59,401 bases of DNA from a virus (lineage: Duplodnaviria; Heunggongvirae; Uroviricota; Caudoviricetes): positions 199,124 through 258,524 of the IMG/VR virus record IMGVR_UViG_3300021256_000055; one strand, given 5' to 3'. The position numbers and the translations under genes were made by a program. This document shows, in pieces, positions 12,928 to 59,401 of this stretch. Under the pieces are notes generated by a model that made no database searches, had not been told where the DNA came from, and was given only the letters and a program-made list of their open reading frames with translations. The first letter of the stretch is position 1; each line of letters starts with the position of its first letter.

Positions 12928-13057
12928 AGGTCATACTCCTCATTAGTGTTATTCGTTTACATATATAATATGTGGATAACATCTACAGAGTATAAAAATA
13001 TTAGAGAAAATAAAACCCCCACAGACTTGTCTAGTCTGTAGGTTTATGTGTTATATA

Positions 13058-13384
13058 TTATTGATAACATTCTGGGATACGTCTTGCACCGATTACTTTG
13101 ATGTGGTAGCCAGCGTAGTTGTTCAGATATACGCAATGGTCCCAGTACCAGTTGTTTGATACATCTGATTTATACAGGAATGCTTTGGCTTCAACGATCT
13201 GATGCTGTTCTGGATGTTTAAGGTATCTTTCTTCTGTCTTCTTGTATATCTTAGTACCTTTACGATGACCGTTACAGAACCAGAGTGTGCCTGTGTCTAT
13301 CTGAACTTTATACCAGCCGCGCTTTGGATTTGCTGGGATGCCCCTTTCATTTACTTTGCCGAATACCATAGGATTGTCCTCCAT
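13058..13384 (-). CDS. Hypothetical protein (paralog of 13485..13697)
   Basis: Shares NE.GIP.NP..G and ..WYWD motifs; GGAG SD. Confidence 0.75.
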   Translation of the reverse strand: MEDNPMVFGKVNERGIPANPKRGWYKVQIDTGTLWFCNGHRKGTKIYKKTEERYLKHPEQHQIVEAKAFLYKSDVSNNWYWDHCVYLNNYAGYHIKVIGARRIPECYQ

Positions 13385-13484
13385 TATATTTGTTTACATG
13401 TATAATATGTAAACAATATTAGAAGAGTATGAAAACTCTACAGACTTTTCTAATCCGTAGAGTTTATAGAGAGGATTGATTCTT

Positions 13485-13697
13485 TTAGTATCGGAACGTA
13501 GCCTCAACTACTTTGTTACCAGACATGAGTGTATTTTCCATAAGTGGACAGTCCCAATACCAATTGATATAACCTTTTCGGAGAATAGCATATGTTGTGC
13601 TTAAGATTCCTGTATCTCCATGCTTAACTATAACCATGTAGCGTCCTTCATCAACTGGATTTACTGGGATTCCGTTCTCGTTTAATTCTTCAGACAT
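13485..13697 (-). CDS. Hypothetical protein (start moved to MSEELN)
   Basis: GGAGG SD; paralog of 13058..13384. Confidence 0.75.
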   Translation of the reverse strand: MSEELNENGIPVNPVDEGRYMVIVKHGDTGILSTTYAILRKGYINWYWDCPLMENTLMSGNKVVEATFRY

Positions 13698-13883
13698 AGT
13701 GATTGCCTCCATTCAGATATTATTTGTTTACACATATAATATGTGGATAAGTTCTACAGAGCACAAAAACTTTTCTGGCTTTTCTGATCTATTTTAAAAT
13801 AGAGCTACGTCCGAATCAACAGCCTGGAGATAATCTAAATCTCTTGGGCTAGCTGAACTTTTTACATTCAGCTAGCACTTGTT

Positions 13884-14180
13884 CTAACTCACCAGGTACG
13901 GCTTGATTGCTGAGACGTCACCCTGATAATCATTGTCCCAGAGATCATTGATGATTTGCATAATTATATCCTTACCCCGGAATCTGTTCTCGTTTGTACC
14001 AATCTTAACGAGTCCCCTCTCGAAGTGACATTGAACGACGTTCAGGTATAATGTATTGATCAAATTGTCTTTTGTAAGACCCTCAAGATCACTCTCGCAG
14101 CCATCATCGATGGAATTGATGTAAGGTCCAATTGTCTCGTCCCAGGCCAGCATGATTTGTTTTCTAATGCTCATAGCCAT
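13884..14180 (-). CDS. Hypothetical protein
   Basis: Own promoter and SD. Confidence 0.75.
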   Translation of the reverse strand: MAMSIRKQIMLAWDETIGPYINSIDDGCESDLEGLTKDNLINTLYLNVVQCHFERGLVKIGTNENRFRGKDIIMQIINDLWDNDYQGDVSAIKPYLVS

Positions 14181-14306
14181 ATAGCATCCTCCACATTAAC
14201 TATTTGTTTACAAATATAATATGTGTATAGATCTATAGAAGTATAGAAATATAATAAAACTTTCTAATCTTATTTGACTAGAAAGTTTTATTATTTGAAG
14301 TTCTTT

Positions 14307-14585
14307 TTAGCTGAGCTTACTGATGGCCTGGAAAGCTTTAGAGATGTTCTCAGCCTGTTTAGCCTGGTCATCTGGAAGTAAAGAGTTACATTCAGTGATG
14401 ATGAGACTTGTAAGTAAGAACTGACATTTGAGAGCGATTTTGGCCATCTCAGTTATAATCATATTGAACTGAGTTTCATTGAACTTACCAGATTCGAGAT
14501 CAGCCTTAGCCTGAGTCTGGGTAAGGTTGGCTCTGTCCAGCATACCACGGATGTTATGGATTGTGTCTGAAGTTATAACAGTCAT
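14307..14585 (-). CDS. Hypothetical helical protein
   Basis: Own promoter, leader GUAAACAAAUAAC, GGAGG SD. Confidence 0.75.
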   Translation of the reverse strand: MTVITSDTIHNIRGMLDRANLTQTQAKADLESGKFNETQFNMIITEMAKIALKCQFLLTSLIITECNSLLPDDQAKQAENISKAFQAISKLS

Positions 14586-14673
14586 AGTTTTGCCTCCGTA
14601 AAAGTTATTTGTTTACATATATTATATGTTAATAACTTCTACAGAGTATAAAAACTATTCTGACTTTTCTGAT

Positions 14674-14919
14674 TTATTCTTCTTTTAATCTGTACGAATC
14701 CTGATCAAAACAAGACCCTTGAGTTTCGTATACAGATTTTGATAGAGCAGACATCAGTGATTTGATTGTCTTTGGCTGTGTTGGAATCTTGCTGTTCCAA
14801 CTGTGGCCACACTGGAGAGTATAGCTGAAGGCATTTGTGAGTTCTTCCAATGTGCCAGTATGTTCATGGGTACGACCACGATGTTTTTTAATGATGGTAT
14901 AGGTTTTTTTGTTTGCCAT
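14674..14919 (-). CDS. Hypothetical protein
   Basis: GGAG SD. Confidence 0.75.
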   Translation of the reverse strand: MANKKTYTIIKKHRGRTHEHTGTLEELTNAFSYTLQCGHSWNSKIPTQPKTIKSLMSALSKSVYETQGSCFDQDSYRLKEE

Positions 14920-14930
14920 AAGTATCTCCC

Positions 14931-15185
14931 TTAGTTGATTTCGATAGTCTTACTTACTCTGTGAGCGAGAACTTCACAGCGTACTGAGTATGAAGAACCA
15001 TCCTGTGTGCTGGCTTCAAGTGAGTAATCTCCCCAGCCTTCATTGATAAGTTCATTCAAGAAGTCACGAAACTCTGTGACTGTGAGATCAGTCTTTTTGT
15101 TATCCGATGAGATGATGAGAGAACTTACTTTGTTTCCGTCTTTGTCCTGCTGATATGTATTCTTGTCATCTGTTACGTTAAGCAT
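14931..15185 (-). CDS. Hypothetical protein (start moved to MLNVTD)
   Basis: The track start reads through the promoter; GGAGG SD precedes 15185. Confidence 0.7.
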   Translation of the reverse strand: MLNVTDDKNTYQQDKDGNKVSSLIISSDNKKTDLTVTEFRDFLNELINEGWGDYSLEASTQDGSSYSVRCEVLAHRVSKTIEIN

Positions 15186-15293
15186 GATCGCCTCCATTTG
15201 TTTACAAATATAATATGTGAACAAATCTGTAGAAGTATAGAACAAATAAAAAACTTTCTAGTCTTATTGAACTAGAAAGTTTTTATAGAAGAA

Positions 15294-15566
15294 CTATTCT
15301 TCGTCTTCTTCTGAGCCGTCTTCGTAGTCTTCTTCAAAAGCAGCTTTTTTGAGAGCGTGAGCTTTCTTAATTTCGTAAGCAATGAAAGCTGAGCCGTCCA
15401 AAATACCAGAGATCATACCGACGATTCCAATCCATCCCCATGGGTTTACTGGAATGATTCCTTTGTAAGCCAGAGCACTGAGTGTAATACCAGCAGCTGC
15501 AAATACAACATCAGCTACTTTCATAGCTCTCCAGACTCTTGCGTTTCTAATCATAATCTTTTTCAT
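15294..15566 (-). CDS. Two-TM membrane protein with acidic tail (start moved to MKKIMI)
   Basis: GTGAGG SD; two hydrophobic helices. Confidence 0.75.
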   Translation of the reverse strand: MKKIMIRNARVWRAMKVADVVFAAAGITLSALAYKGIIPVNPWGWIGIVGMISGILDGSAFIAYEIKKAHALKKAAFEEDYEDGSEEDEE

Positions 15567-15597
15567 AGTCTTAACCTCACTAAGAATTATTCGTTTA

Positions 15598-15633
15598 CAT
15601 ATATAATATGTAAACAATTCTGTAGAAGTACAA
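15598..15633 (-). promoter_or_regulatory. Representative array promoter
   Basis: -35 TTGTAC (15633-15628), 17-nt spacer with TCTACAGA, -10 CATATT (15610-15605), predicted +1 G at 15598; perfect palindrome GTTTACATAT-ATA-ATATGTAAAC. Confidence 0.85.
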
Positions 15634-15666
15634 AAACTTTCTAGTCTGTCACAACTAGAAAGTTTT
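15634..15666 (-). terminator. Representative conserved-arm terminator
   Basis: AACTTTCTAGT-loop-ACTAGAAAGTT plus U tract; about 12 copies share these arms. Confidence 0.8.
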
Positions 15667-15676
15667 TTAAAGTGAT

Positions 15677-15886
15677 TTAGAGATTGATTGTTCTCTCGTA
15701 GAATTGCCAGCCCCACTCGTGATTTTCTACGTCAATGTCAATTTCGTCTTCTTCGTAATCATCTTTCAAGAAGTCGAGACGTTCCTGTTCTGAGTCGAAA
15801 ACGTCTTCAGACTCACCCATCGGAATTCCATCTTCGTAGTGCGTGATCAAGCGTGCGCAGTAAAGAGTTTTAGTTTTTCCAGCCAT
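15677..15886 (-). CDS. Hypothetical protein (paralog of 21798..21995)
   Basis: Y.DG.P...SE..F...ER..FL.DY..DEI....HE.GW.F.E pattern shared. Confidence 0.75.
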   Translation of the reverse strand: MAGKTKTLYCARLITHYEDGIPMGESEDVFDSEQERLDFLKDDYEEDEIDIDVENHEWGWQFYERTINL

Positions 15887-16025
15887 AATTTAACCTCACT
15901 AAGTTTATTTTGTTTACAATAATAATATGTTAATAGTTCTATAGAAGTATAAAATAATAGAAAAACTCTTCTAATCTGACAGACTAGAAGAGTTTAGTAA
16001 ACAAATATTTATGAGGTGAACATTA

Positions 16026-16412
16026 TTAAAATCTGAATGATCCGTGTCCGAACTTATGAATCTCTTCAAGATGAGCTTTCTCAGCTGCAACATAGTCGTA
16101 GTCAGCAACTTTGATTTCTTCAAGACGCTTGATAAGTGAACGAACAAGAATATCCTGTTTAAGATCGAAGCAAGTGAACGACTGTTGAACTCTTCGAAGT
16201 TCATTTGTAAAAGACTCGATCGCTTTGTCAAATCCTTTATCCCATCCACCGTCCAGTTTCATTACTAAGTGAACGTATCTTGGCTTGTTTTCACAACAAG
16301 TAAGATTCACAGTTACTAAATCAAATCCGTGAGCCCAACTCTGAACTACTGATCCGATTTCTTTTATCGGGTTGAGAACATTTTCTAGTCTTAAGTGGTC
16401 TGCACAAGTCAT
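16026..16412 (-). CDS. Hypothetical protein (start moved to MTCADH)
   Basis: GGAGG SD and own promoter. Confidence 0.75.
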   Translation of the reverse strand: MTCADHLRLENVLNPIKEIGSVVQSWAHGFDLVTVNLTCCENKPRYVHLVMKLDGGWDKGFDKAIESFTNELRRVQQSFTCFDLKQDILVRSLIKRLEEIKVADYDYVAAEKAHLEEIHKFGHGSFRF

Positions 16413-16529
16413 AGTCTTAACCTCCAACCAGGTATTATTCGTTTACAGTTATAATATGTAGACAGTTCTATAGAAGTATAAAGCTAAAGTAAAACTTTCT
16501 AGTCTTATTTAACTAGAAAGTTTTTTAAA

Positions 16530-16760
16530 CTAGGAATTTAATTCATCAAAGCCTTTACGAGCTTCTGCTTTATCAAGAATATCACGGATCTGTATGAGAG
16601 CGCTGGTGATGGCATTGTATTCACCATTAGAAATCTTGTCATCGTAATACATATTGCTTGCTACGACAAGCACGCCATCTTTGAGAGCATCGAGCTCTTC
16701 ACGTGTTCTTCCGTCCTTAAGCTGACTAAGTGTAAGTTTGTTTGCTTTATCCAAATCCAT
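16530..16760 (-). CDS. Hypothetical helical protein
   Basis: AGGAG SD and promoter. Confidence 0.75.
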   Translation of the reverse strand: MDLDKANKLTLSQLKDGRTREELDALKDGVLVVASNMYYDDKISNGEYNAITSALIQIRDILDKAEARKGFDELNS

Positions 16761-16853
16761 ACGATTCTCCTGTACTCTTATAATATGTGAATAATACTAC
16801 AGAAGCATAAAAAATCAGAAAAGCTAATTTCTAACTTTTCTGATTTAACTATT

Positions 16854-17336
16854 CTAGTTTTTAGGCAATTCGCTTTCTTTAATGTAGTGGTCTGTGAATA
16901 ACTGTGAATCGTAAATATTCGGCATGACAATTTCATCCCAGTCGTCGATTTCTGGATCATAGTACTCATATTTGTACTTCTTCAGGAGCGCTGCAAACTC
17001 AGCCTTAAAGTCATTAAACTTTTCAGCAGAGAAGAAGTTTGTAGCTTCAACTTTCAGGTCATCTACTATACTTTCGATATGCTGTTCAATGCTATTTTCA
17101 CCTGATCCAGGACGAACTTCATTCCATAATGCTATTGCCTGAGCTTTTGAGCGATGCTCTGACTTTTCAATATCATGATTCTTGTCAAAGTATACTTCAG
17201 CAAAATCCGCAGACTTTCTTGTGATTCCGCCTTCCAGATTTATATCACAGCTTACATGAATCATGATATGCATGTTTGTCTCATTTGAACCAAATCCACA
17301 GTAAACTGTTTTATCAAAAGTTTTTCTTGTAATCAT
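16854..17336 (-). CDS. Hypothetical protein (start moved to MITRKT)
   Basis: GGAGG SD; coupled to the upstream stop. Confidence 0.75.
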   Translation of the reverse strand: MITRKTFDKTVYCGFGSNETNMHIMIHVSCDINLEGGITRKSADFAEVYFDKNHDIEKSEHRSKAQAIALWNEVRPGSGENSIEQHIESIVDDLKVEATNFFSAEKFNDFKAEFAALLKKYKYEYYDPEIDDWDEIVMPNIYDSQLFTDHYIKESELPKN

Positions 17337-17337
17337 C

Positions 17338-17571
17338 TTAGTCCTCCTGTGAATCAGCATATTCATCCATAAGCTCGAAGATTTCGATAAGCTCAGGATA
17401 TTCAATCATCGCAGCAAGCTTAGCATTTTCTTCGTCCCATTCAGCCTGGTTTTCTTCAGTGATATAACACTCGCCCCAGCTTTCATTTTCATCTGCAAGA
17501 TAGAACTCTGAGCTTGCAAATGCGCTTGTTGCCATAAGAATTGTTACTAAAGTCAAGATAATCTTTTTCAT
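17338..17571 (-). CDS. Signal-peptide-bearing acidic protein; leaderless start
   Basis: MKKIILTLVTILMATSAFA signal-like; ATG is at the predicted +1. Confidence 0.7.
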   Translation of the reverse strand: MKKIILTLVTILMATSAFASSEFYLADENESWGECYITEENQAEWDEENAKLAAMIEYPELIEIFELMDEYADSQED

Positions 17572-17609
17572 ATTTATAATATGTGAATTATTCTGCAGAA
17601 GCATAAATC

Positions 17610-18183: not shown

Positions 18184-18192
18184 ATAATCCTC

Positions 18193-26770: not shown

Positions 26771-27050
26771 AATTTTAACCTCACTAAGTTTTATTCGTTT
26801 ACATATATAATATGTATTTAGTATTAGAAAAGTACAAAAACTCTACAGACTTATCTGATTTAAAAAAAGAAAGGACAAGCCAACGACTTGTCCTTTCAAA
26901 ATGTAAACAAATAACACAGGAGGTCATCTGGGAAAGCGGTCTTAACTCGTCGTAGCCTTGGTGGGCTTTTACCTCACCAACTAGCTGATAAGATGCAGGC
27001 CATTGCGTATCCTTGCACGTTACCGGCTCCCTTGATAATTCTGTGAATAG

Positions 27051-27734: not shown

Positions 27735-27825
27735 ATAATTGGCCTCCGAAATGTTATTTTGTTTAGCTTTTCAGCTTACATATATAATATGTAATTATCT
27801 ATGTAGAAGTCCAAAAAGTTTCCAT

Positions 27826-28007
27826 AAAATTCACAACTTCATTTCGCCAATTTAGTTTAATAGCCGGCATCTAAATCAGTTACTTTACTTGGTGAGTCCA
27901 GGCGGCTGAGCGAAGTCCGCATCCCCATCGGTGGTAAGCCGAGTGTGCTACAAACTCTTACACTATGGTCTCTAAGTTGTGAACTTTATGCAAGCTTTTC
28001 AGCTTAC
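27826..28007 (-). ncRNA. Candidate ~180-nt structured RNA
   Basis: Promoter +1 at 28007; 14-bp closing helix 27974-27987 with 27826-27839; no SD-led ORF. Confidence 0.6.
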
Positions 28008-28059
28008 ATATATAATATGTTTTTAACTATGTAGAAGTACAAAAACATATCATATATTT

Positions 28060-35545: not shown

Positions 35546-35785
35546 TTAGTCTTCTCTTGGTCCACCACATGCAATCTTACCACAGTCGATACAGAATCTT
35601 GTGCGGATAACCTTAGTCGAGAAGTCCATATACTTCGATCCAGCTTTAAGAGTTTTACCACAGTCTGCGCAGTGGTAATCTTTTTTTGCGGTTCTTATTT
35701 TATGCTCAACAAAATCGAGCTTCCAATGTCTGTTATCGCGCCACTGTTCAACAGTGTCGTCTTCATATTCCCATGCTTCATCCAT
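35546..35785 (-). CDS. Zinc-binding protein; leaderless start
   Basis: HCADC...FCIDC; ATG at the predicted +1. Confidence 0.75.
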   Translation of the reverse strand: MDEAWEYEDDTVEQWRDNRHWKLDFVEHKIRTAKKDYHCADCGKTLKAGSKYMDFSTKVIRTRFCIDCGKIACGGPRED

Positions 35786-35871
35786 ATTTATAATATGTAA
35801 ACAATTCTGTAGAAGTACAGAAAATAAAAAAACTTTCTAGTCTAATTTAACTAGAAAGTTTTTATAAAGCG

Positions 35872-38807: not shown

Positions 38808-39305
38808 TTATCTTTTTAAGTGACTTCTGAATAAGTCAGGATTACCAATTTCTTTTGCTTTTTTACCAAGACAATAAGCATCCTCTACATAGTCATACTC
38901 ATAGCCAAAATCTGGGTAGTCTTTATCATCCCATCCAGCTTCAAAAGCTTCCTGAAGTTCGCTTAATCCAAGCTCACAATCAAGCCAATTTTCAAAGACT
39001 TCTTCATTGGCTATATTAAAGCACTCATCTACATCACCTCCACAAGGCGCAGTAGATTCTACCCAGCTTACAGGAAAGCTTCTATATCCTCTTTGTTCAA
39101 GAGGAATGCCAACTTCAATTGTGCTTGACTTAGTAAGTGGCGCAGTACTCAACAGAAGACGCAGCATATCGTCTCTATTCACACGGCTTGCATTGGTAGA
39201 TTTAATTTTTACCGTAATAACATTTCCCCTCACGAAGATTTCTTTTACTTTAGGATTATTCGTGAGCAGACTTTCACAGGCTTCTTTTAGTTCATTAAAA
39301 GCCAT
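38808..39305 (-). CDS. Hypothetical protein (N-terminus similar to 57350..57616)
   Basis: F.EL..AC.SLL...I..F....V.VK pattern. Confidence 0.75.
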   Translation of the reverse strand: MAFNELKEACESLLTNNPKVKEIFVRGNVITVKIKSTNASRVNRDDMLRLLLSTAPLTKSSTIEVGIPLEQRGYRSFPVSWVESTAPCGGDVDECFNIANEEVFENWLDCELGLSELQEAFEAGWDDKDYPDFGYEYDYVEDAYCLGKKAKEIGNPDLFRSHLKR

Positions 39306-39468: not shown

Positions 39469-39541
39469 TAGCAGAGGAGGGACTCGAACCCCCGACCTTG
39501 TGGTTATGAGCCACACGAGCTGCCAGCTGCTCTACCCTGCG
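39469..39541 (-). tRNA. tRNA-Met(CAU), initiator-like, no encoded CCA
   Basis: C1.U72 mismatch, GAGC/GCTC D stem, loop CT-CAT-AA, GGGGG-TTCGAGT-CCCTC, A73. Confidence 0.9.
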
Positions 39542-39557
39542 TCGTATATTTAATTAG

Positions 39558-39629
39558 GCCCTATGAGAAGATTTGAACTTCTGACCTCTGGACTTCACGC
39601 CCAGTGTTCCGCCACAGAACTTCATAGGA
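39558..39629 (-). tRNA. Atypical tRNA-like element (anticodon reads UGA with G33)
   Basis: All four stems pair (TCCTATG/CATAGGG, GTTC/GAAC, CTGGG/TCCAG, AGAAG/CTTCT); TTCAAAT T loop; AGGTC variable loop. Confidence 0.65.
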
Positions 39630-39771
39630 AGATTTGATTACTCTGTCCGTTACCCACATGTCGCGATCAAGTTGGGGTCGTAAGTTTCATCTTATCCAGC
39701 CTTAAGGCTAACTTATATAATATGTAAATATCCTTTTGAAAGTATAAAATCTTTTCTGACTTTTCTAACTT

Positions 39772-41910: not shown

Positions 41911-41994
41911 AAGGTATCTCCTTAGTTATTTGGTTTACATATATAATATGTAAATAAGGTCTGCAGAGTACAAAAACTCTACAGACCTTTCTAA

Positions 41995-42402
41995 CTAATC
42001 AGTTGGCAATACAAAATCCTCTGGAATGTCAAATATGTCGCTATGATTTCGACAATACTTTAATCCATAACGAGTGAGTCTCCAAAGTCTACGAGACTGA
42101 GAGTACTCAGTGAAACCTTCTTCGTGAACAGCCGCATAGAAAGCGCACATATTACCAGGGCTCTTTTTGTAATCTTCCGGCATTGGGTTTACTTTAATAT
42201 CATGATAAGTATACCAAGCCAATTCGGCAGGAGTCATCACTGGTTTATAAAGAAGATTCTGGAGCAGTGTAACATATCGGTTACCCTTTTTTGGCATGGT
42301 AAAAGCATAACCAGTTCTACTCATTCCAGTTGTTCGATTGTGTGAATATACCGATCCACGATGCTGTTCATGGATTGTATCATAATCCAAGTAGTCACTC
42401 AT
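41995..42402 (-). CDS. Hypothetical protein (start moved to MSDYLD)
   Basis: GGAGG SD. Confidence 0.7.
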   Translation of the reverse strand: MSDYLDYDTIHEQHRGSVYSHNRTTGMSRTGYAFTMPKKGNRYVTLLQNLLYKPVMTPAELAWYTYHDIKVNPMPEDYKKSPGNMCAFYAAVHEEGFTEYSQSRRLWRLTRYGLKYCRNHSDIFDIPEDFVLPTD

Positions 42403-42850: not shown

Positions 42851-43525
42851 TTAAGCAACACTATGGTATGGTGCTCTATTATTTTCACGCATCCATTTGC
42901 GTCCAGTACAAGTATTTATTACAAATGCTGCTTGAGCATAGGTAATATCATCTTCTAATTTATTACATACCTGAAGTGGAATATAAACACCATCATAAGT
43001 ATATTCTTTTCCCGGCACATAAAAGCCAGATGTATCTTTATAAAGGATATTGTAACAATTTAAGTAGTCAATGACATCTTGCATTTCATAAGCAAAAAAT
43101 ATTACAGTTTGAATTTCCTCTTCCTTTCTTTCATCAAAATACCGACGTGACATTGAACACTTAAAAGCTTTAAGAAATAAAGGAATTTCATCTATTTTAT
43201 AGCATATAGTCATATTGCCTACGATATAATCATGAACATTTTGAAAGTGCATTTTAAGTGCATAAATCTCAGCAATCTCACGACAAGCTTGCTTCATTTT
43301 GCGAACTTTTTCGTCCCAGTCGGACTGTTCTTTTTTCTCTTCTTTTTTTATTTTTTTAGCTTCACTAAGAGAGACATTTTCTTTATTAGCTTTTCTTATA
43401 CAATCAATTGTATCAATAGTACCACCAACAATGCAAGCGATTACAAAGAAAAGCATTGGCATACCAACTGTTATTAAAACAAAATCCAAAGCTATATTCG
43501 AAGTAATCAAGCGATATTCTTCCAT
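42851..43525 (-). CDS. N-terminal TM hypothetical protein
   Basis: One TM, then a coiled segment; GGAGG SD. Confidence 0.75.
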   Translation of the reverse strand: MEEYRLITSNIALDFVLITVGMPMLFFVIACIVGGTIDTIDCIRKANKENVSLSEAKKIKKEEKKEQSDWDEKVRKMKQACREIAEIYALKMHFQNVHDYIVGNMTICYKIDEIPLFLKAFKCSMSRRYFDERKEEEIQTVIFFAYEMQDVIDYLNCYNILYKDTSGFYVPGKEYTYDGVYIPLQVCNKLEDDITYAQAAFVINTCTGRKWMRENNRAPYHSVA

Positions 43526-43622
43526 AAAAATACCTCCTGTTATTTATAATATGTAAATTGTTCTGTAGAAGTATAAATATAGGACCAAGTTATTTCTAAC
43601 TGGTCCTACTTAACTTCAATTG

Positions 43623-44072
43623 TTAAAAAGCCCTTGATTCAAAGTAAATAACAGCTTTTTCTAGGATTGAGTAGACTTTTGAGTTAACCTCAGCATACTG
43701 GTCTCTAAAGGTTGCAAGCTTCTGGTCAACATAGTCTTTTTTCCAGTTAATACCAGCTTCTACTTTATCATAGTCTGTTTGATCCATAAAGCAACCAAGT
43801 GACTGAAGCGCACCATCATAGTCCATCCCTTTAGATTTCATATCACTACGGGCTATTCTATAGGCTTCTCTCCAATCCATATCATCTTCTGATTGCTCTA
43901 CAATTTGATCAAGAATTGCAGTGCGAATTGTATTTGCGTCATCTGAAAGCTTTTTGTCTTCAGTTGAAGCAGAAAGTACTCTCAAGCCATGAATAATAAT
44001 TTCCCAATCACGACGACAGAACTCTAAATCCAAGTCCATATCATCATATTCAGGACCAAGGTTTAATATCAT
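43623..44072 (-). CDS. Hypothetical helical protein
   Basis: GGAGG SD and promoter. Confidence 0.75.
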   Translation of the reverse strand: MILNLGPEYDDMDLDLEFCRRDWEIIIHGLRVLSASTEDKKLSDDANTIRTAILDQIVEQSEDDMDWREAYRIARSDMKSKGMDYDGALQSLGCFMDQTDYDKVEAGINWKKDYVDQKLATFRDQYAEVNSKVYSILEKAVIYFESRAF

Positions 44073-44168
44073 TTAATACCTCCAAGTTATTTGTTTTACA
44101 TATATAATATGTACCCAAATCTGTAGAAGTATAAAAGCCAGACAAAATATCTGGCTTAACTTATAGAA

Positions 44169-45028: not shown

Positions 45029-45328
45029 CTAGAAGCCATACCTATCTTTAAGGTCCATTAGAGTCTCATCAATATCACGCGAGAGCTCATCAATTGAGCC
45101 AGCTTGAAGACGTCCATCAACTAGCTCGTCTTTTAAGCTAAAGCAAATTACCAAGTCGCCCGTGTAATCTACAATCATTTTGAAATTGCCATCTTCAATT
45201 GAGCATTCCAAAGAGGCATCAAAACTACAATCGAAGTCCTTTACCGCCAGGTCTTCACCTGTTCTTCCAGCCTCTTCCAATGTGGATTTGATTTCTTTTA
45301 AGTATTCTTTTGCAGCGTTTATATACAT
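45029..45328 (-). CDS. Acidic hypothetical protein
   Basis: GTGAGG SD and promoter. Confidence 0.75.
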   Translation of the reverse strand: MYINAAKEYLKEIKSTLEEAGRTGEDLAVKDFDCSFDASLECSIEDGNFKMIVDYTGDLVICFSLKDELVDGRLQAGSIDELSRDIDETLMDLKDRYGF

Positions 45329-45420: not shown

Positions 45421-47028
45421 CTAGTCATTTTTACCTAAGGTTACACCCTTGACTTTCTGAAACAAAGTTTCTTTATCATAGATTCCATCATCAATCTGGA
45501 ACTCATAAGCTTTCTGAAGCATCTTCTTAAAGATTGGTCCAGGTTTTTTTCCAAACTTGATCAAGTCATCTCCCGTCAAAACCGGCTTTGGCATATCCAG
45601 CTCTCTGAGCTCATCAATTTTTACTGTTCTTCTACGAACACCAAATGTAAGCTCATTTGTATGAATAGTTACTTCACGCTGGAGGGAACCTAAGATTCCA
45701 TCCCAAGCATCATCAACAGTCTTAAGACAACCTGTTTCATCTGCTTGTGCAAGCACAATCAAATCATCAAATGGCGTCTTTTTAATAAACTGCCAAATTT
45801 TAGTTGGTGACTTCATCTTCATCAACTGGTGCATTCTCATATGATTTTCTGTCATGGCTCTAACGAACTCACAATCATCATTTGGTAAACCAAGTGATTT
45901 ACAGAAGTCATAAGCAATTGGTGCTCCAACAACATCATGGTCTGAAACCTTTGGAATTGATTCAAAGAACTCTTTTCCATTGATTTCAAAAGTATTTTCT
46001 TTTGTACCTAAGTCTGAATGAGCTTTACCAATATCATGCAAGTAAGCTGACAAAATCATTAAGAATCGTTTATGTTCATCATCCTCATTTGAGATGCACT
46101 TAAACATATTCTTAACTACTTTCATAGTATGGTCATAAACTGTACCATTACCCAGGATTTCAAAATCTTTAGCTATGTGAAGCAAGTCCAGAGTATACTG
46201 ATTATTGATTGTAGCAACTCTTGTTAATCCACCATCCATATGGAACTTTACTAAAGCACCTTCTGAATGCCATTTAAATGACTGCTTTACTCTAAGCATT
46301 TCACCAAAGACTTTGCTCATACCAATAAGCTTCCAAATTGGAGCCATTAAATTCTGAACTTTTTCATCTATAAAGAACTTACCACCAAGAATCTTAGTGA
46401 GCTCTTTAAGCTGACGCTCTTTTGATACTTCGGAGAAGTCTAAGCCGTCAACAAAAGCTGCAAATTTAATCTGCTCTTTATTTGACATGGTAACTGGTAC
46501 AAATCCACGGCTTGATGCAAAGCGTACATATCTGAAGTATCTCAATGGGTCCTCAGACAATCTGTCTTTATAGTCCCCAATGAAGCGGAGTACTTTCTGC
46601 TTAATGTCCATTTCACCAAGCTCAGTAGGATCAATGATATTTCCATCAATATCTTCGTACAAAGCATTTACGGTGAAGTCACGACGCATAGCATCTTCTT
46701 TCAAGCTTGTAGTAAAGCCAACTTCAGGATGACGACCTTTTGTTTTATCAACACGTAATGTTGCAATTTCAACTTCTTCAATAGTTCCATCTGAGAACTT
46801 AATCAAAGGCATTGTAACACCAAACTCTTCTGAATTATCAGAAACATTAGAAAAGTCAGAAAAGATTTTATGCAAATCAGCCGGTGTTGCATCAGTACAA
46901 ACATCAAAGTCGTGAGGTTCCTTCCCTAATAATGCATCGCGTACACAACCGCCAACAAACCAAGCGCCAAATCCAGCATCAATAATAGGCTTGAGAACGA
47001 GTGTTTTTAATTCTGATTTAATATCCAT
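45421..47028 (-). CDS. cca: tRNA nucleotidyltransferase (class II CCA-adding enzyme) with HD domain
   Basis: VGGCVRD..LG..P.DFD, RRDFTVNAL, EDPLRYFR, H.EG..Y.HT, LHDIGK, H...GA and C-terminal LTGDDL..G.KPGP motifs. Confidence 0.9.
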   Translation of the reverse strand: MDIKSELKTLVLKPIIDAGFGAWFVGGCVRDALLGKEPHDFDVCTDATPADLHKIFSDFSNVSDNSEEFGVTMPLIKFSDGTIEEVEIATLRVDKTKGRHPEVGFTTSLKEDAMRRDFTVNALYEDIDGNIIDPTELGEMDIKQKVLRFIGDYKDRLSEDPLRYFRYVRFASSRGFVPVTMSNKEQIKFAAFVDGLDFSEVSKERQLKELTKILGGKFFIDEKVQNLMAPIWKLIGMSKVFGEMLRVKQSFKWHSEGALVKFHMDGGLTRVATINNQYTLDLLHIAKDFEILGNGTVYDHTMKVVKNMFKCISNEDDEHKRFLMILSAYLHDIGKAHSDLGTKENTFEINGKEFFESIPKVSDHDVVGAPIAYDFCKSLGLPNDDCEFVRAMTENHMRMHQLMKMKSPTKIWQFIKKTPFDDLIVLAQADETGCLKTVDDAWDGILGSLQREVTIHTNELTFGVRRRTVKIDELRELDMPKPVLTGDDLIKFGKKPGPIFKKMLQKAYEFQIDDGIYDKETLFQKVKGVTLGKND

Positions 47029-47806: not shown

Positions 47807-47939
47807 GCTTAATTAGCGAAAAATTAAAAACTTCCTAGGTGCTGCGCCGCAAGGGAAAGTTTTTACAGAGGCCCTCGAACCACCTAGCCTCTATCAAGTT
47901 ACGCTTCAAACCGGTTCAACTTGCAAGCTACCGGCCCCT

Positions 47940-48025
47940 CGGACCTAATCGGATTCGAACCGATATTCTACGCCTTTCCACTGTGGGCTTTAAGCGTAGG
48001 CCTAAGCCAATTAGCGGATAGGCCC
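47940..48025 (-). tRNA. tRNA-like element with expanded (18-nt) anticodon loop and G3.U70 pair
   Basis: GGGCCTA/TAGGTCC acceptor; AATTGG D loop; ACGCT/GGCGT stem; ATCGG-TTCGAAT-CCGAT T arm. Confidence 0.6.
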
Positions 48026-48431
48026 GGAACAATAGCTATTTATGCTTATCATCTGTACCACCCTGAAAAGTTGTGGCCTCGGGATGATTACCGTGGGTTG
48101 CTACCCCGCCAATCTAAAGCCTGGCGACTTTGAGAAAAGAGCCTCAACTAGTATAAGCTCTACATGCCCGAGTTTGTTTAGGTCAACTCTGTTTAACATG
48201 CTTGCAATTACAACCTTTAAGACAAGAAGCCTTAGTAAGACGCACTAGTCCCCTCACTTATCAGGAAATGCAGTTCCCGGAGCTTTCGCCTGCATACTAC
48301 TCGCAATGGTATTGGTTATAGTAAGTCTTACTAAAACTTCTTTTGAAGTTCTAGTGCAAGAGGATTCATTTAACGTAGCATAGCCTCTCACATCTTAATA
48401 TCCGTTCGCTACGGTAAGTGTTTTAACTTAC
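48026..48431 (-). ncRNA. Candidate ~400-nt highly structured RNA co-transcribed with the tRNA-like element
   Basis: Promoter +1 at 48431, no SD-led ORF, many helices. Confidence 0.55.
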
Positions 48432-48488
48432 ATATATAATATGTAAACTAAACTTGTAGAGTACAAAAACTCTACAGGCTTATCTTAC

Positions 48489-51663: not shown

Positions 51664-51732
51664 ATAATACCTCTATATAGAATATGTAAATTAAACCAGA
51701 AAAGTATAAAAACTTTTCTGGCTTTTCTGACA

Positions 51733-54677: not shown

Positions 54678-54706
54678 TATTATACCCCTTTGGATTACTA
54701 AAAATT

Positions 54707-54961
54707 TTACATGTTCTTTATTACCACATGCTTATCATGATGATTGTAAGAATCCATGATTCCCGCTTTCATCGCATCATCAATCATCTGGGCCCACTGA
54801 TCAGAAGTATTTGCCCAAACAATAATCAACTCATCATGCCCAAAAACTGAATCCACATTATCCATAGAAACGCTTAGATTCTCCAGGAACTTAAGTGCTT
54901 TATCTTTAATCTGAATCGATTTGGACTGTCCGTTTTCGGTAAAGGTAATCTCTTTGACCAT
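54707..54961 (-). CDS. Hypothetical protein
   Basis: GGAGG SD. Confidence 0.75.
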   Translation of the reverse strand: MVKEITFTENGQSKSIQIKDKALKFLENLSVSMDNVDSVFGHDELIIVWANTSDQWAQMIDDAMKAGIMDSYNHHDKHVVIKNM

Positions 54962-55140
54962 CCTTTAACCTCCGTAAGGTTTTATTCCCTACATATATAA
55001 TATGTAGATTGTTCTAAAGAAGTATAAAATTCTATAAAACATTTTAATTTATATTATTATACTAACGGAACGGACTTGCCTAGAAATAAAAAAAGACCAA
55101 GATTTTTACATCTTGGTCTTCTTATTATGCCAGCTGCTTA

Positions 55141-55590
55141 TTAAGCAAGTGGTGTGAGTACTACTGTGTTGTCTTCGCGGCGTTCAACAGCGTACTTGTG
55201 TGTTTTATGGTTCTTAGCCTTAAGACACTTGTACAAGCAGTCAAGAGTGTTGGTAACCTTAAGGTTGAGAGTTGTTGCAAGATATTCAGCGGCTGCTTTC
55301 ATATTCTTAAACTCCATGCCAGCAACTGATGTTGCAGTTGTAACAGCTGGTACGATTGCTTCAGCTACTGTTTCAGCAGGTTCTTCAGCTACTTCAGTTT
55401 CAGCAACTGTTGCTGCGTCCATCTGAGCTTCTGTGTCAACGTCGATAGTTGCTTCGTTTGCAAACTCTGGTACTTCAACTGCAGCTTCCTGAGCTACTGT
55501 TTCCTGTGGAAGATCTTCGATTGGTTCATCGAAAAACTGATTGTACTGTTCAAGTGTCAAACCCATTGCTTCAACGTCTGCCATTTTCAT
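55141..55590 (-). CDS. Acidic E/A/T-rich linker plus F.N.K.AA.YL domain (start moved to MKMADV)
   Basis: GGAGG SD; C-terminus similar to 54447. Confidence 0.75.
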   Translation of the reverse strand: MKMADVEAMGLTLEQYNQFFDEPIEDLPQETVAQEAAVEVPEFANEATIDVDTEAQMDAATVAETEVAEEPAETVAEAIVPAVTTATSVAGMEFKNMKAAAEYLATTLNLKVTNTLDCLYKCLKAKNHKTHKYAVERREDNTVVLTPLA

Positions 55591-55741
55591 AATAATTACC
55601 TCCAAGTAATTCATTTAATTTGTTTTGTTGTTGCTGATTCATTCAGCTTACATATATAATATGTAATCTAATCTACAGAAGTATAAAACTTCTAAAAATT
55701 TTTTAGAAAAATCTGTAGAAAACTCTACAGACTTTTCTGAC

Positions 55742-56134
55742 TTAAATGTCCCTACCGTCCCACTGCAGGTAGTAAGTACCCCTGTATGGCGCGCCATAAT
55801 CGCTTGTATCTCTTTCATCAAGACCAAGATGTTCTACAGCAATCTGTCGGACCAGATCAGCTAGAAAGTCTTTATCGTCCATAAGAGTACGACGAAGATG
55901 TTCCTTGAATGATCCGCTTGGAGTTGAAAGCTCTTCAATACGTGCTTCCAACTTTGTTACTTCTTCTTTATGTCGCGCAGTCATATTATCACGGTTGCGG
56001 CCATACTCTTCATCAAGTCCCTTTTCAATTTTATTCCAAATTTCATGAGACAACTTGTTAGCATTTTCTATGCTGATTTTCATGTTTTCGCGCATAAAAT
56101 CACGAAGGTCACAAGAGTTTGTAAACTTATCCAT
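55742..56134 (-). CDS. Coiled-coil hypothetical protein
   Basis: GGAGG SD. Confidence 0.75.
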   Translation of the reverse strand: MDKFTNSCDLRDFMRENMKISIENANKLSHEIWNKIEKGLDEEYGRNRDNMTARHKEEVTKLEARIEELSTPSGSFKEHLRRTLMDDKDFLADLVRQIAVEHLGLDERDTSDYGAPYRGTYYLQWDGRDI

Positions 56135-56148
56135 TCTTAAGCCTCCCT

Positions 56149-56559
56149 TTAGATTGACATAAACTCTTTTAGTTTCTGGATTGCAGCTTTTTCAGCTTCT
56201 GTAAGAGTATCGATAATTGTATTATCGTGTACAGTTTTTCCAGTGTCTATATCAGCAAGATCAATAGCAAAGTAATCTGAGCGGTTATAGCAATAGATGC
56301 TGATTCCGCTATCCCCAGGATTGATGCAAACGCCAATACTAGTACCCGGAATAATATAATGATTTGGTGTAGGATACGGTTCAGTAGCCAAAAGTCCTTC
56401 TTTTTCGCTGTCTTTAAGAAGCTTACGACAATAACGACCGAACTTAGCTAAGCACGCATTTGATTCTTTTTTAGCTTCCAGGAACTGATCTTCAAGAGCG
56501 TTTGTTTTACTTTGAAGTGCAACATATTCCTGTTGCTTTTGCAAATAGTCTTTTAACAT
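56149..56559 (-). CDS. Coiled-coil family protein (divergent)
   Basis: N-terminal heptads, LLKDSEKEGLL. Confidence 0.7.
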   Translation of the reverse strand: MLKDYLQKQQEYVALQSKTNALEDQFLEAKKESNACLAKFGRYCRKLLKDSEKEGLLATEPYPTPNHYIIPGTSIGVCINPGDSGISIYCYNRSDYFAIDLADIDTGKTVHDNTIIDTLTEAEKAAIQKLKEFMSI

Positions 56560-56568
56560 AGAATCCCC

Positions 56569-56763
56569 CTAGAATAATGATTCATATAAGAACTTAAAAT
56601 AGCTCTTTTTACCAAGCCACTTTGATTTGTCAATAAAGGGAAGCCAAATAAGCAATGCTTCAAGACAGATTCCCATAAAGCCAAAACAAATTACATTTAC
56701 TGAATCCATATTGGCCAGCTTCCCTGTTACCGCTAAAATTAAAATTGTAATAACTGAAATCAT
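56569..56763 (-). CDS. Two-TM membrane peptide
   Basis: Hydrophobic; GAGG SD. Confidence 0.7.
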   Translation of the reverse strand: MISVITILILAVTGKLANMDSVNVICFGFMGICLEALLIWLPFIDKSKWLGKKSYFKFLYESLF

Positions 56764-56849
56764 AATTTACCTCTATTATGATATGTTGACAATTCTGTAG
56801 AAGTATAAAAAAGACCAGACATTTTTTTGTCTGGTCTTTCTGAACTGAC

Positions 56850-57350
56850 TTAAATAAATTCTATAGAATCCGCAACTGGCATACAGTCATATATGTTATT
56901 GTTTTCATAAGTAGAAAAGAATCCGGTTATTCTAACTTTTCTTCCTACATTTTCTTTAGAAAACCTCGCAAGCTTTATACCGAGCCTATCAGCAAAGATT
57001 CGGGTACCAAAACCCATACTATCTTCTATACACAAGCTAGTATTACTAGTTACTTTACGGATTTTGCCTTCAAATGTAAACGAAGATCTTTCTTTACATT
57101 TTTTATCATACTCCGCATTTAGCTCTGCACCAGTTTTAACAAGCATATCAATGATGTCTCTAAGCTGGCTTGAAGTATACCTTGTTGGATCACATAAGTC
57201 GTTCCAATCAAACGATTGCTTTTTTAAGTACCTATTGCCATAATTGACATTACGCAAAAGATTCAAATATTTTGTATCATATTGCGCATCAACATTATCT
57301 AGATTCCTATAAAGGAAATCCACATTTGATTTTGCTACCTGAACAAACAT
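56850..57350 (-). CDS. Hypothetical protein with possible C-terminal OB-fold
   Basis: FEGKIRKV ... GRKVRITG pattern. Confidence 0.55.
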   Translation of the reverse strand: MFVQVAKSNVDFLYRNLDNVDAQYDTKYLNLLRNVNYGNRYLKKQSFDWNDLCDPTRYTSSQLRDIIDMLVKTGAELNAEYDKKCKERSSFTFEGKIRKVTSNTSLCIEDSMGFGTRIFADRLGIKLARFSKENVGRKVRITGFFSTYENNNIYDCMPVADSIEFI

Positions 57351-57616
57351 TAAGCCTCCTTAAGGCTTACATTCCAGAATCTATAGCCCTTACGTGTAGT
57401 AACATGCTCAACATCGAGCTGTGTAGCTTTAGTCAGATAAAGCGTTTCTTTCAGTTCTTTTTCAAGCTGCTTAGAATTGTAAACTCTTTCTCCATCATTT
57501 TCATGATGAGCTAAAGCTTTTACTTCAACATAGCCATCATTTATGAAAACGTCATCAATACGGTTGCGATTCAAAAGTGACATACAAGCATCAGTCAAGT
57601 CCTTAAACTTTGGCAT
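57350..57616 (-). CDS. Hypothetical protein (paralog of the 38808 N-terminus)
   Basis: GGAG SD and promoter. Confidence 0.75.
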   Translation of the reverse strand: MPKFKDLTDACMSLLNRNRIDDVFINDGYVEVKALAHHENDGERVYNSKQLEKELKETLYLTKATQLDVEHVTTRKGYRFWNVSLKEA

Positions 57617-57688
57617 AATTTCCTCCTTACAAATATAATATGTCTATAGAGCTTTTAAATCCTAAAAACTCTACAGACTTATCTAACA

Positions 57689-58171
57689 TTATTCTGGATA
57701 AGAATCACAGAAAACACCACTAAGAGCATTGCGCAACATGAAAGCTTTAAGGCTGTCATATCGCCAGCTATTGCGAGCATAGCGGTCATACTCTTCTTTT
57801 GCTTTTTCAGCATAATGCTTAACATCACGATCTGTGAAATCAAATGGGTATTTCACATATATTCGGATGCTTTTCTTATTGAGCTTCACCAATGCAATTG
57901 TGTCAGGTTTACGCCAATTTGACAGTTCCAGCGCACTAAGTATTTCATATGGCAAAAGCTGATGTTCTTCGTCAAATGAAATAATATGTCGAGACGATCT
58001 CAGTCCGGGAAAATCAAGCTCTTTAGCATAATGTTCCATTTCTTCAACTGAATCGCAGAATCGTACACGTTCATTATCACCCCAGCGGAACTGAGCTGCA
58101 ATACCAGATTCTTTTTTTAAGAATTCGTTGTAAACTGTTGTTACAACATTTTTTAAGTCAATACCTTCCAT
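57689..58171 (-). CDS. Hypothetical protein
   Basis: GAGG SD at +1. Confidence 0.75.
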   Translation of the reverse strand: MEGIDLKNVVTTVYNEFLKKESGIAAQFRWGDNERVRFCDSVEEMEHYAKELDFPGLRSSRHIISFDEEHQLLPYEILSALELSNWRKPDTIALVKLNKKSIRIYVKYPFDFTDRDVKHYAEKAKEEYDRYARNSWRYDSLKAFMLRNALSGVFCDSYPE

Positions 58172-58257
58172 ATTTTACCTCATATATAATATGTCTGCAG
58201 AACTATAGAAGTATAAAAAAATCCGTTAAACTTTTCTAGCTTAACGGATTTAATTTG

Positions 58258-58605
58258 TTATGCACTTAAAATAGCTTCAAGTTCATCACATTGCTTTTGA
58301 TGTTCCACAATTTGTTTTTTATGGTATTCTATAAGGCCTGTGAGAGACCCAATATACTCTATACTACCCATATCATCGTAGTCTTTAAGCAAAGCGATAT
58401 AAATATTCTTGCTTTCATTTTTAATAAAGTCTTCTTCATTAAAATCTGAATCACAGTCAGGCTCATTTTCCAGATATTGCTTCCAGAGCTTAAAAGCTTT
58501 CTTAGCTTCCGTTTTTGGAAACTTAAAAATTCGATATTTTAGACCAGTGTCTATTTCGTATGTTTTAAGCTTATCCCAAGCTGCTTTACCTAATGCCATA
58601 TTCAT
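58258..58605 (-). CDS. Hypothetical protein (start moved to MNMALG)
   Basis: GGGAG SD upstream of 58605. Confidence 0.7.
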   Translation of the reverse strand: MNMALGKAAWDKLKTYEIDTGLKYRIFKFPKTEAKKAFKLWKQYLENEPDCDSDFNEEDFIKNESKNIYIALLKDYDDMGSIEYIGSLTGLIEYHKKQIVEHQKQCDELEAILSA

Positions 58606-58609
58606 CGTA

Positions 58610-58858
58610 CTAATCTCCCATAATGTTTGCTTTGTAATAGTCAAGTGTTTTATTAGCAAAGTCCCAAAGCCAGCCACCATCAAGTGGATACTTATCAGGA
58701 TCAACAAGTACTGGAAAGATGTCCGGATATTGCAGGTAATAGCTATCCAGTTCGCCCCAGTTTACGCTGTTTTCTGTCTTTTCTTCTGGGTACTCAGTAT
58801 AATAGTCATCCAGGTAGTCCAGCAAGATTTTTGCAAGCTGTGTTTTTGTTCTTTTCAT
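58610..58858 (-). CDS. Acidic, aromatic-rich hypothetical protein
   Basis: GGAG SD. Confidence 0.7.
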   Translation of the reverse strand: MKRTKTQLAKILLDYLDDYYTEYPEEKTENSVNWGELDSYYLQYPDIFPVLVDPDKYPLDGGWLWDFANKTLDYYKANIMGD

Positions 58859-58861
58859 AAG

Positions 58862-59269
58862 TTACTCCTTCTTAACAAGTGTCTTCATTAACAGTGCTAC
58901 CTGAGCTTCCAGGTCAGCTATACGCTTTTCAAGAGCTGCAGTTTTATCGGGCCTGATAACGTTCTTTTCTGGATCCCACTTGATTGTAGCATTTGTGTCC
59001 ATATTACCCGTATTATACAAGGTAACTTTACACAAGCCCTGAGTAGCATAAAAGCTTTTAATATCGACCTTAGCTACTTCTCTTGACCCATGACCCCAGC
59101 CCTTTTGCCAGACTGTAAGACCAAGCAAAGCTTCTTTAATTCCATCTTCAGAAACTGGCTTACCCTGGATACGCTCTGAGAATTCTTCCTGGGCTGAACG
59201 CAAGCGGCCATTATTCGTCCAAGCATCGATGCTACCTGTTCCAAGCGAAGCATAATCAAACTTTTCCAT
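58862..59269 (-). CDS. Hypothetical protein with C-terminal coiled coil
   Basis: GGAGG SD at +1; LEKRIADLEAQVALL. Confidence 0.75.
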   Translation of the reverse strand: MEKFDYASLGTGSIDAWTNNGRLRSAQEEFSERIQGKPVSEDGIKEALLGLTVWQKGWGHGSREVAKVDIKSFYATQGLCKVTLYNTGNMDTNATIKWDPEKNVIRPDKTAALEKRIADLEAQVALLMKTLVKKE

Positions 59270-59401
59270 AATTGCCTCCGAATATAATATGTAAATAAGC
59301 CTGCAGAAGTACAGAAACTCTACAGACTTATCTAACTTCTAAAATGCTGCTGTACCAATACGGCCATGAACTGGAATCCCTTTATGAATAATATTTGTAA
59401 G

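Follow-up and report, generated by a model that had tools for sequence, protein, structure and literature searches.

A long array of small genes in an uncultivated jumbo phage appears to be built from repeated promoter-terminator cassettes

Introduction

The end of one giant phage contig raises a question: why does one and the same non-coding element stand before dozens of small genes that are mostly unrelated to each other, and what does it do there? The stretch analysed, here called the window, is the 59,401 nucleotides that form the final 59.4 kb of a 258,524-bp IMG/VR virus contig (IMGVR_UViG_3300021256_000055), for which CheckV gives a completeness of 88% and in which terminal repeats are absent. 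A preliminary description of this DNA had proposed that about 70 expression cassettes have a promoter with two embedded palindromes in common, that they recall the promoter-early stem-loops (PeSLs) which mediate modular shuffling in T4-type phages, and that either palindrome could be the site of a dimeric phage regulator. PeSLs are known from the T4-type groups RB49/phi1, T4/PST and KVP40/nt-1 (Arbiol 2010, PMC2839356; Comeau 2014, PMC4122927), and the definition used here is that of PMC4122927. Judged by its sequence, the feature looks like a known kind of phage regulatory cassette, unusually large and compact, in a new phage lineage and with an unusual promoter.

One motif before most of the small genes

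A search with the pattern TCTAYAGA-N7-ACATATT gave 58 matches at two mismatches or fewer, where 0.65 would be expected. An iterated weight matrix, run over the whole 258,524-bp contig with a cut-off score above 15, located 74 copies between 12988 and 59307. Every one lies on the minus strand; the plus strand has none. This counting and scoring confirms the array of about 70 cassettes with a common promoter. The real copies score 20-57 bits, whereas composition-matched shuffles do not exceed 12. The motif is about 44 bp long, with the minus-strand consensus tttTTRTACT-TCTRYAGA-aYtRttt-ACATATTATA-wwTG-taaac, and ACATATTATA is exact in 67 of the 74 window copies. In the best copy (15583..15636, minus strand, 57 bits), TTTTTGTACT occupies 15636-15627, TCTACAGA 15626-15619 and ACATATTATA 15611-15602; the predicted start lies near 15598-15596 and is followed by the leader GTAAACGAATAA.

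A motif scan of JGI metagenome contigs led to 45 loci in rumen metagenomes, with 285 further copies at 1-3 per kb and, one exception among the 285 aside, uniform orientation within each contig. Pooled with the window and de-duplicated, they give 333 unique promoters. Conservation in this set is highest over ACATATTATA (97-100%), followed by T27 (89%) and G28 (71%); TTTTTRTACTT reaches 80-96% and TCTRYAGA just 72-90%. About 20 weaker copies, all on the minus strand, are dispersed over the remaining 200-212 kb or so of the contig, and these keep TTTTTGTACTTT and ACATATTATA without TCTRYAGA.

By the weight-matrix scan and gene calls, the array occupies 12950..59401 on the minus strand, comprises 74 cassettes of putative terminator, promoter and leader with about 100 small genes (median 101 amino acids (aa), strong GGAGG sites), and runs off the contig end. 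A promoter is followed by one gene in 44 cases, by two in 20, three in four and four in one, while five of the 74 head leaderless genes, tRNAs or non-coding RNA; the median spacing from promoter to promoter is 558 bp. Among 100 array genes only nine weak pairs of paralogues were seen, and since the genes are almost all mutually unrelated, the repeated part is the regulatory module and not the whole cassette. Most of the products are ORFans: the 96 array proteins scanned, of about 100 called, matched 7 Pfam and 20 PHROG families. A metagenome contig (L173, 1-2035) shares the final 227 bp of the window with 98.7% identity and extends the array by at least 2 kb and three more cassettes, so that array and genome go on past the contig end.

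The predicted position of the transcription start

Twelve promoter copies, belonging to about eight distinct genes, read ACATATTATAAATATG and place an ATG exactly at motif position 28 with no Shine-Dalgarno (SD) sequence. Three of them are in the window (35813, 24810 and 17599) and nine in relatives, and the open reading frames (ORFs) that they head are 51-126 codons long, one with a signal-peptide-like N-terminus. At 35546..35823 (minus strand), for instance, the ATG of a 79-aa ORF lies at 35785. A leaderless ATG at so fixed a place would be hard to explain unless transcription starts at that ATG or within 1-2 bases of it. The geometry first described, with TTRTAC at -35, a 17-bp spacer, CATATT and 6 nt to +1, is thereby supported, the 12 SD-less ATGs sitting at the called +1; the data are also compatible with a -10 hexamer TATTAT preceded by an invariant CA. 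Where an SD of the GGAGG type is present, it and its ATG follow at a median of 26 nt past motif position 28. We infer from the sequence pattern that the motif acts as a promoter and that the array is expressed early.

Other promoter readings of the element were rejected: TTTACA-17-AATAAT inside the dyad at -10/+1 has a poorly conserved downstream hexamer, and archaeal TATA-box and Bacteroidetes -7/-33 promoters do not agree in geometry.

Palindrome 1 as the arm of an RNA hairpin in a subset of cassettes

A terminator scan found 33 sites against 10.4 expected, mostly adjoining promoters, and among the 333 copies a stem-loop abuts or wraps the promoter in 71%. In 56% (class A) this is a separate hairpin, in about 15-18% (class B) the hairpin is formed around the -35, and 29% have no strong hairpin. 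Class A hairpins end 5-22 nt before the motif, and their U-run continues into the T-run at the -35 of the promoter that follows, as in the predicted intrinsic terminator at 15627..15665 (minus strand; stem AAAAACTTTCTAG.../...CTAGAAAGTTTTT). Class B is represented at 41951..41996 (minus strand) by a 14-bp RNA hairpin, AAGGTCTGTAGAGT / ACTCTGCAGACCTT, whose loop is the -35 region and whose 3' arm is the spacer palindrome. At 51687..51732 (minus strand) the same -35 loop is closed by the different arms AAGCCAGAAAAGT / ACTTTTCTGGTTT; TCTRYAGA has been replaced there and pairing kept, a compensatory change.

The spacer palindrome itself is real, but the form TCTAYAGA given for it in the preliminary description has to be corrected to TCTRYAGA, which is exact at the standard place in 40 of the 74 copies. 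The array holds 77 copies of it against 3.8 expected; elsewhere in the genome there are 19, against 17.9 expected. Relative to the standard place (position 0, 40 copies), it is also found at -1 (7 copies), +5 (2), +8 (6) and -19 (15), and it lies somewhere in the spacer in 56 of the 74. The copies at -19 are an upstream arm, ..AGAWAAGTCTGTAGAG, which forms a helix of 10-18 bp with the spacer copy and the sequence beside it and leaves the -35 (TTTTTRTAC) as the loop.

Several observations characterize this pairing. With G·U allowed there are 34 helices of at least 12 bp, with A·C allowed 8, and with strict Watson-Crick pairing 3; G·U is thus tolerated and A·C is not, which points to pairing of the sense-strand RNA and not of single-stranded DNA. 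Long helices are two to three times commoner in cis than when upstream arms are matched with the spacers of other promoters. The arms covary, AAGG../..CCTT in some cassettes against AAAG../..CTTT in others, with wholly different arms elsewhere (CCAGAAAAG/CTTTTCTGG and TAGAGTAAGAAAAGC/GCTTTTCTTATTCTA), and double-sided changes exceed those in shuffled controls. In two register-specific alignments 92% of the cells are paired, against 30-48% after sliding the partner, a figure that is partly circular given that the sequences were picked for a helix of at least 10 bp, although this does not apply to the compensatory and wobble pattern. The GU centre of TCTGTAGA can, moreover, form Watson-Crick or wobble pairs with precisely the bases that RY allows in the middle of TCTRYAGA. 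A U-rich spacer (tTATTTac) follows the hairpin, whose most plausible role is therefore that of a terminator for the preceding unit, in overlap with the promoter of the next. Where an explanation can be given, palindrome 1 is an arm of an RNA hairpin by its pairing, and that hairpin would act as a terminator.

One large array ORF with a Ribonuclease III domain and two with DUF5662 were seen in the relatives (L132-L176); an RNase III gene amid an array rich in long RNA hairpins may be of interest.

The two dyads as proposed operators

The preliminary description had also suggested that the palindromes are sites of a dimeric activator or repressor, in which case the array would form a single regulon turned on or off by a phage-encoded protein, for example in early-gene shut-off. 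The second dyad, (GTTT)ACATAT-TAT-ATATGT(AAAC), does not behave in this way. For all of its pairs the complementarity equals what the column frequencies predict, with no covariation, and its arms are very unequal, the left being 99-100% conserved and the right 56-89%; in the window copies it is exact over 6+6 positions in 30 of 74, over 8+8 in 14 and over 10+10 in 3. Given the unequal conservation and the lack of excess pairing, a selected dyad is not indicated, and dyad 2 is an invariant -10 block beside moderately conserved start and leader sequence.

Some features of palindrome 1 would suit an operator. The halves of TCTRYAGA are about equally conserved, the sequence is confined to the array promoters and absent from the 20 or so dispersed copies, it is retained in class A where the RNA partner is absent, and both between -35 and -10 and over -10/+1 are classical positions for an operator. 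Its central RY, however, is non-palindromic in most copies (AC 109 and GT 40, against AT 75 and GC 21), it moves by -1, +5 or +8 bp, it is weaker than the -35 and -10, and in some cassettes unrelated arms that still pair take its place. It is also dispensable in other promoter copies: in a more distant jumbo phage relative (G001; 240 kb, 76% complete, helicase 55% identical), the few motif copies at the truncated contig end keep TTATACTTCT and ACATATTATA and lack TCTRYAGA. Neither dyad thus combines comparable half-sites with a fixed place in the promoter, and no candidate regulator was identified, although no systematic search for helix-turn-helix (HTH) proteins was made. We consider regulation of the array through such operators doubtful, and the proposal of dimeric-regulator sites is not borne out. 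A protein site at palindrome 1 is possible in the majority of cassettes, which lack a partner; nothing tested argues for one.

Repeats of the array kind probably break assemblies, and G001 likewise stops within its array.

Gene order among the relatives

BLASTN of the 45 loci against the window revealed a mosaic in which gene order is permuted and orientation kept. Within -70 to +60 of a promoter lie 60% of the 221 internal homology ends, compared with 21% under the null and a maximum of 32% in 2000 randomisations, and the ends peak at the -35 and at the -10/+1. Maps of L156, L157, L162, L168 and L171 all have permuted order, with the blocks of L168, L162 and L171 in differing orders. In L156 the -35 is the point at which the gene 45029-45328 adjoins the gene 38808-39305. 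The window unit at 43518..44135 (minus strand), which holds the single gene 43623-44072, appears mobile: it recurs in L156 with 97% identity in a different neighbourhood, and homology stops at position -8 of the unit's own promoter and at position +51 of the promoter after it. The parallel with PeSLs, as first drawn, is therefore supported by the comparison of gene order, with permutation and with breakpoints inside the cassettes. Read-level joints, nearly all promoter-to-promoter, have a short side of 22-44 nt inside the repeat and were not counted as rearrangement.

An array running one way, with small ORFan cassettes and a repeated imperfect inverted-repeat element between them, whose order is permuted between relatives with junctions inside the repeat, also recalls a site-specific cassette system, in which the repeats would be mainly recombination sites, like integron attC hairpins, and the promoter features secondary. 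The most invariant part of the repeat is nevertheless a -10-like decamer at a fixed distance from start codons, leaderless ATGs included, and pairing that tolerates G·U and not A·C points to RNA rather than to single-stranded DNA of either strand. The junctions are spread over the whole homologous module, as homologous exchange predicts, and no integrase was seen beside the array. We regard a site-specific system as highly improbable.

The phage lineage and its host

Near-identical or related DNA is present in gut and rumen metagenomes from 15 studies, several of them labelled bovine, goat or sheep. Cultured phages gave no DNA-level match by megablast, exact-pattern scans of IMG/VR for relatives returned nothing or single chance matches only, and the large ORFs of the contig match few, almost no, PHROG families. 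Neither a Gp23 capsid domain of T4 type nor a MotA domain was found in the 258 kb, and the phage is not T4-like by Gp23, the sole marker tested. One locus (L170), a Bacteroidetes-like bacterial contig with a single motif match, was dropped as a relative; some 3-4 chance matches are estimated for the collection.

The phage probably infects a Gram-positive rumen bacterium, which is consistent with the strong GGAGG ribosome sites in virtually all genes. Its GroEL was uninformative as a guide to the host, the matches being just 31-41% identical, mostly to Bacteroidales metagenome-assembled genomes, and biased by the word patterns used; these matches conflict with the near-universal use of strong SD sequences.

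The polymerase that would read the motif

Strong sigma-70 consensus matches are clustered nowhere on the contig. Host polymerase is the default reader of the motif, yet the invariant CA before TATTAT is not a sigma-A feature. The -10 box CATATTAT is exact in 68 of the 74 copies, C16 and A17 are 99-100% conserved in the 333 promoters, and AC stands exactly 17 nt before CATA in 61 of the 74, with an A at -5, giving ATAC, in 73%. In Clostridioides difficile the canonical -10 box of the mother-cell sigma factors is CATAnnnT(A), CATATTAT or CATATAAT (PMC3789822); the -35 elements are AC for σK and ATA for σE, and the listed σK promoters have AC, 17 nt and CATA, with a start 6-7 nt past the box (Saujet 2013, PMC3789822). 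On sequence alone, the array motif has both the -10 and the -35 of a σE/σK-type promoter.

These agreements (the canonical mother-cell -10 box, AC 17 nt before CATA, and usually ATA too), together with the poor match to sigma-A and with GGAGG sites that fit a Gram-positive host, raise the tentative idea that RNA polymerase with a mother-cell sporulation sigma of the σE/σK family, the host's or an unrecognised phage-encoded one, reads these promoters and that sigma-A is uninvolved. We think it possible, though unlikely. No sigma-70-family domain (PF04542, PF04545, TIGR02937, TIGR02846) was detected in the 258-kb contig (88% complete), no region 2 domain in the 240-kb relative (76% complete), and no sigma family among the large ORFs of the relatives. 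The host may be a bacterium that does not sporulate; dependence of a phage on such a factor for some 100 genes and tRNAs would lack precedent; and AT-rich motifs can look alike by chance. The leaderless ATGs, moreover, suggest a start 5 nt past the box, at the short end of the C. difficile range.

With the same reserve, one may picture a rumen jumbo-phage lineage that expresses a shufflable array of at least 100 genes from promoters with a sporulation-sigma signature (AC/ATA, 17 nt, CATATTATA) and with terminators folded around the -35. If this were true, either the host σE/σK would read the array, whose genes would be reserved for the sporulating cell or trigger it, or a sigma-like factor would have diverged beyond detection; each module would at once be stop signal, start signal and crossover site. 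A real match to the sporulation sigmas would link the accessory programme of a giant phage to the sporulation of its host.

Phage-specific machinery, either a virion-delivered polymerase of the AR9/phiKZ jumbo type or a MotA-like activator that appropriates sigma, would account for the length, AT-richness and near-invariance of the motif and for its fixed start a few bases further on. The early promoters of the AR9 virion RNA polymerase (RNAP) have the consensus AAATATATATTAT-N6-G (Lavysh 2017, PMC5312081), with ATATTAT in common, while TACTT near -30 resembles the TGCTT Mot box, which the PmSLs of phage nt-1 pair with a TATTAT -10 (PMC4122927). The contig, however, gave no match to single-subunit RNAP, beta or beta' domains (PF00940, PF00562, PF00623) and has no MotA domain, and the catalytic motif DxDGD is absent from each of its plausible ORFs. 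The clear bipartite -35/-10 geometry is also typical of sigma-dependent promoters, and we judge phage machinery of either sort improbable. The 5671-aa protein of the sole giant gene was considered as a virion polymerase of N4 or crAss type and rejected, as it has neither family matches nor the catalytic motif.

Candidate RNAs and other loci

The array includes three tRNA genes. The promoter at 39469..39750 (minus strand; TCT at 39740) would drive tRNA-Ser and tRNA-Met with no protein gene, and elsewhere a CCA-adding tRNA nucleotidyltransferase with an HD domain (45421-47028, minus strand) is one of the cassettes.

At 47830..48469 (minus strand), a promoter with its TCT at 48459 is followed by about 600 nt of G+C-rich, ORF-free, structured sequence. 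This stretch has a tRNA-like T-arm (GGTTCGAATCC) and folds at -193 kcal/mol (z -2.4), and its core, 48031-48347, is 95-97% identical in relatives where the flanks are 73-79%. A search of Rfam gave no match for 47830-48430, which is a candidate new large phage non-coding RNA. Two adjacent promoters at 27780-28045 (minus strand; TCT at 28035 and 27807) have a variant spacer, TCTACATA, and a leader, GTAAGCTGAAAAGC, in common; no ORF lies behind the one at 28035, RNA-library contigs are deep here (54x in X18), and the locus is a possible small RNA gene. At 26946-26990, some 60 nt downstream of tRNA-Arg, a stretch of about 36 nt is matched in four runs by contigs with 16S-looking flanks (flank identity by eye) and looks like a 16S rRNA-like fragment inside a phage transcript.

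Outside the array a second motif, CTAATT(A/T), occurs more often than expected at 20-110 nt before structural and large genes, in 15 upstream regions against 0.9 expected, for example upstream of G000:C1 178841-195856, 39306-41864 and 6213-8540. It is a candidate for a second, perhaps late, promoter class distinct from the array promoter.

A probable composite cassette for expression and exchange

We observed a regulatory repeat, hairpins that pair and covary, breakpoints that cluster and leaderless ATGs at a fixed position, and these features as a whole are probably best explained by a PeSL-type array that serves both expression and gene exchange. The array would be a hyperplastic accessory-gene region, probably early or for host takeover, built of composite cassettes in the order terminator hairpin, bipartite promoter, start and leader. 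Such a promoter would combine TTRTAC near -35 with (A)CATATTAT(A) from roughly -13 to -4, with the start at motif position 28-30, and would lead into a short leader that bears a strong Shine-Dalgarno of GGAGG type or, in some cassettes, directly into a leaderless ATG. Palindrome 1 would be the descending arm of the terminator stem, with the ascending arm ..AGAWAAGTCTGTAGAG upstream of the -35 and the U-rich tail in the spacer. In class B the -35 would thus lie in the loop of a terminator wrapped around the next promoter, whereas in cassettes with a separate upstream terminator palindrome 1 would remain a conserved element of the spacer. Recurring every 560 bp or so between unrelated genes as a direct repeat, the module of about 45-100 bp would double as a crossover point.

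Several points weigh against this reading. Of the class A cassettes, 85% keep TCTRYAGA without a pairing partner, so that the RNA-arm explanation covers a minority; in cassettes outside class B the sequence is likewise present without a partner in 75-85% of copies, for which recent spread of whole modules, a spacer requirement, a protein site, contacts with RNA polymerase or recombination homology are possible reasons. A small local hairpin of the -35 with palindrome 1 (TTYTRTA-CTTC-TRYAGAA) can nearly always pair and has zero covariation, and we do not claim it as a selected structure. The motif matches 6-7 of 12 canonical sigma-70 positions, and canonical sigma-70 promoters are not enriched (69 against 63.8 in a 20-kb array stretch and its shuffles); with so poor a match, a host sigma-A early promoter is not established. 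The clustering of breakpoints comes from alignment ends of diverged metagenome contigs and not from observed recombination. Bovine metatranscriptome contigs cover parts of the array and some cross promoters, and stored contigs of this kind cannot show RNA ends.

For such genomes the 44-bp weight matrix is a handle with which transcription units, leaderless genes, tRNAs and non-coding RNAs can be delimited. A terminator whose loop is the -35 of the next promoter would be a striking compaction of signals.

Comparison with known systems

With the σE/σK promoters of Clostridia and Bacilli (PMC3789822) the motif has in common an identical CATATTAT, AC 17 nt upstream, usually ATA, and a start a few nt past the box; here, however, there are at least 74 copies in a jumbo phage of lytic type, before tRNAs and ORFans, and no sigma gene was detected in it. 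AR9 and phiKZ (PMC5312081) are likewise jumbo phages with dozens of near-identical, extended, AT-rich early promoters, ATATTAT and a fixed downstream start, but genes for a multisubunit RNAP (beta/beta') were not detected in the present contig, and the -35-like block conserved 17 bp upstream is lacking in AR9 promoters.

Integron attC arrays also consist of small one-way cassettes with repeated imperfect inverted repeats and an order that varies between relatives. Each cassette here has its own promoter and putative terminator, the pairing is RNA-like, and the junctions are spread, with no integrase seen beside the array. The host-takeover module of SPO1 and the early regions of T4 and T5 hold many small early genes near a genome end, each with a strong phage-specific promoter and a strong SD. 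Those promoters match the host sigma-A/sigma-70 consensus, are without a shared embedded hairpin arm, and form clusters several times smaller.

The closest parallel is with the PeSLs. Both combine a stem-loop, -35 and -10 boxes that are 17 bp apart, an SD and a start codon, and the stem-loop stands upstream here in 56% of the 333 copies as a separate hairpin while a further 15% enclose the -35. The copies are concentrated in a hyperplastic ORFan region (74 in 46 kb, compared with about 20 weak ones in 212 kb), and it is at the motifs that relatives differ by insertions, deletions, replacements and displacements. Promoter and stem sequences are lineage-specific in both, the PeSL boxes varying by lineage (PMC4122927). 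The differences are that the array here is far denser and longer, with at least 74 contiguous units on one strand, that the promoter is not sigma-70-like in sequence, and that in a subset the terminator encloses the -35 in its loop instead of preceding the promoter. Exchange is deduced here from metagenome contigs; for PeSLs it was shown by mini-circle assays, with PCR for circular excision products in RB49. The present phage also falls outside the T4-type phages, the lineage in which PeSLs were described, which is no mechanistic requirement. To our knowledge, reports of mobile regulatory cassettes of this type have until now been confined to T4-type phages with Gram-negative hosts; cassettes that look like them, at much larger scale and in an unrelated, uncultivated jumbo-phage lineage, support the view that repeated promoter-terminator modules drive the turnover of accessory genes in large phages generally.

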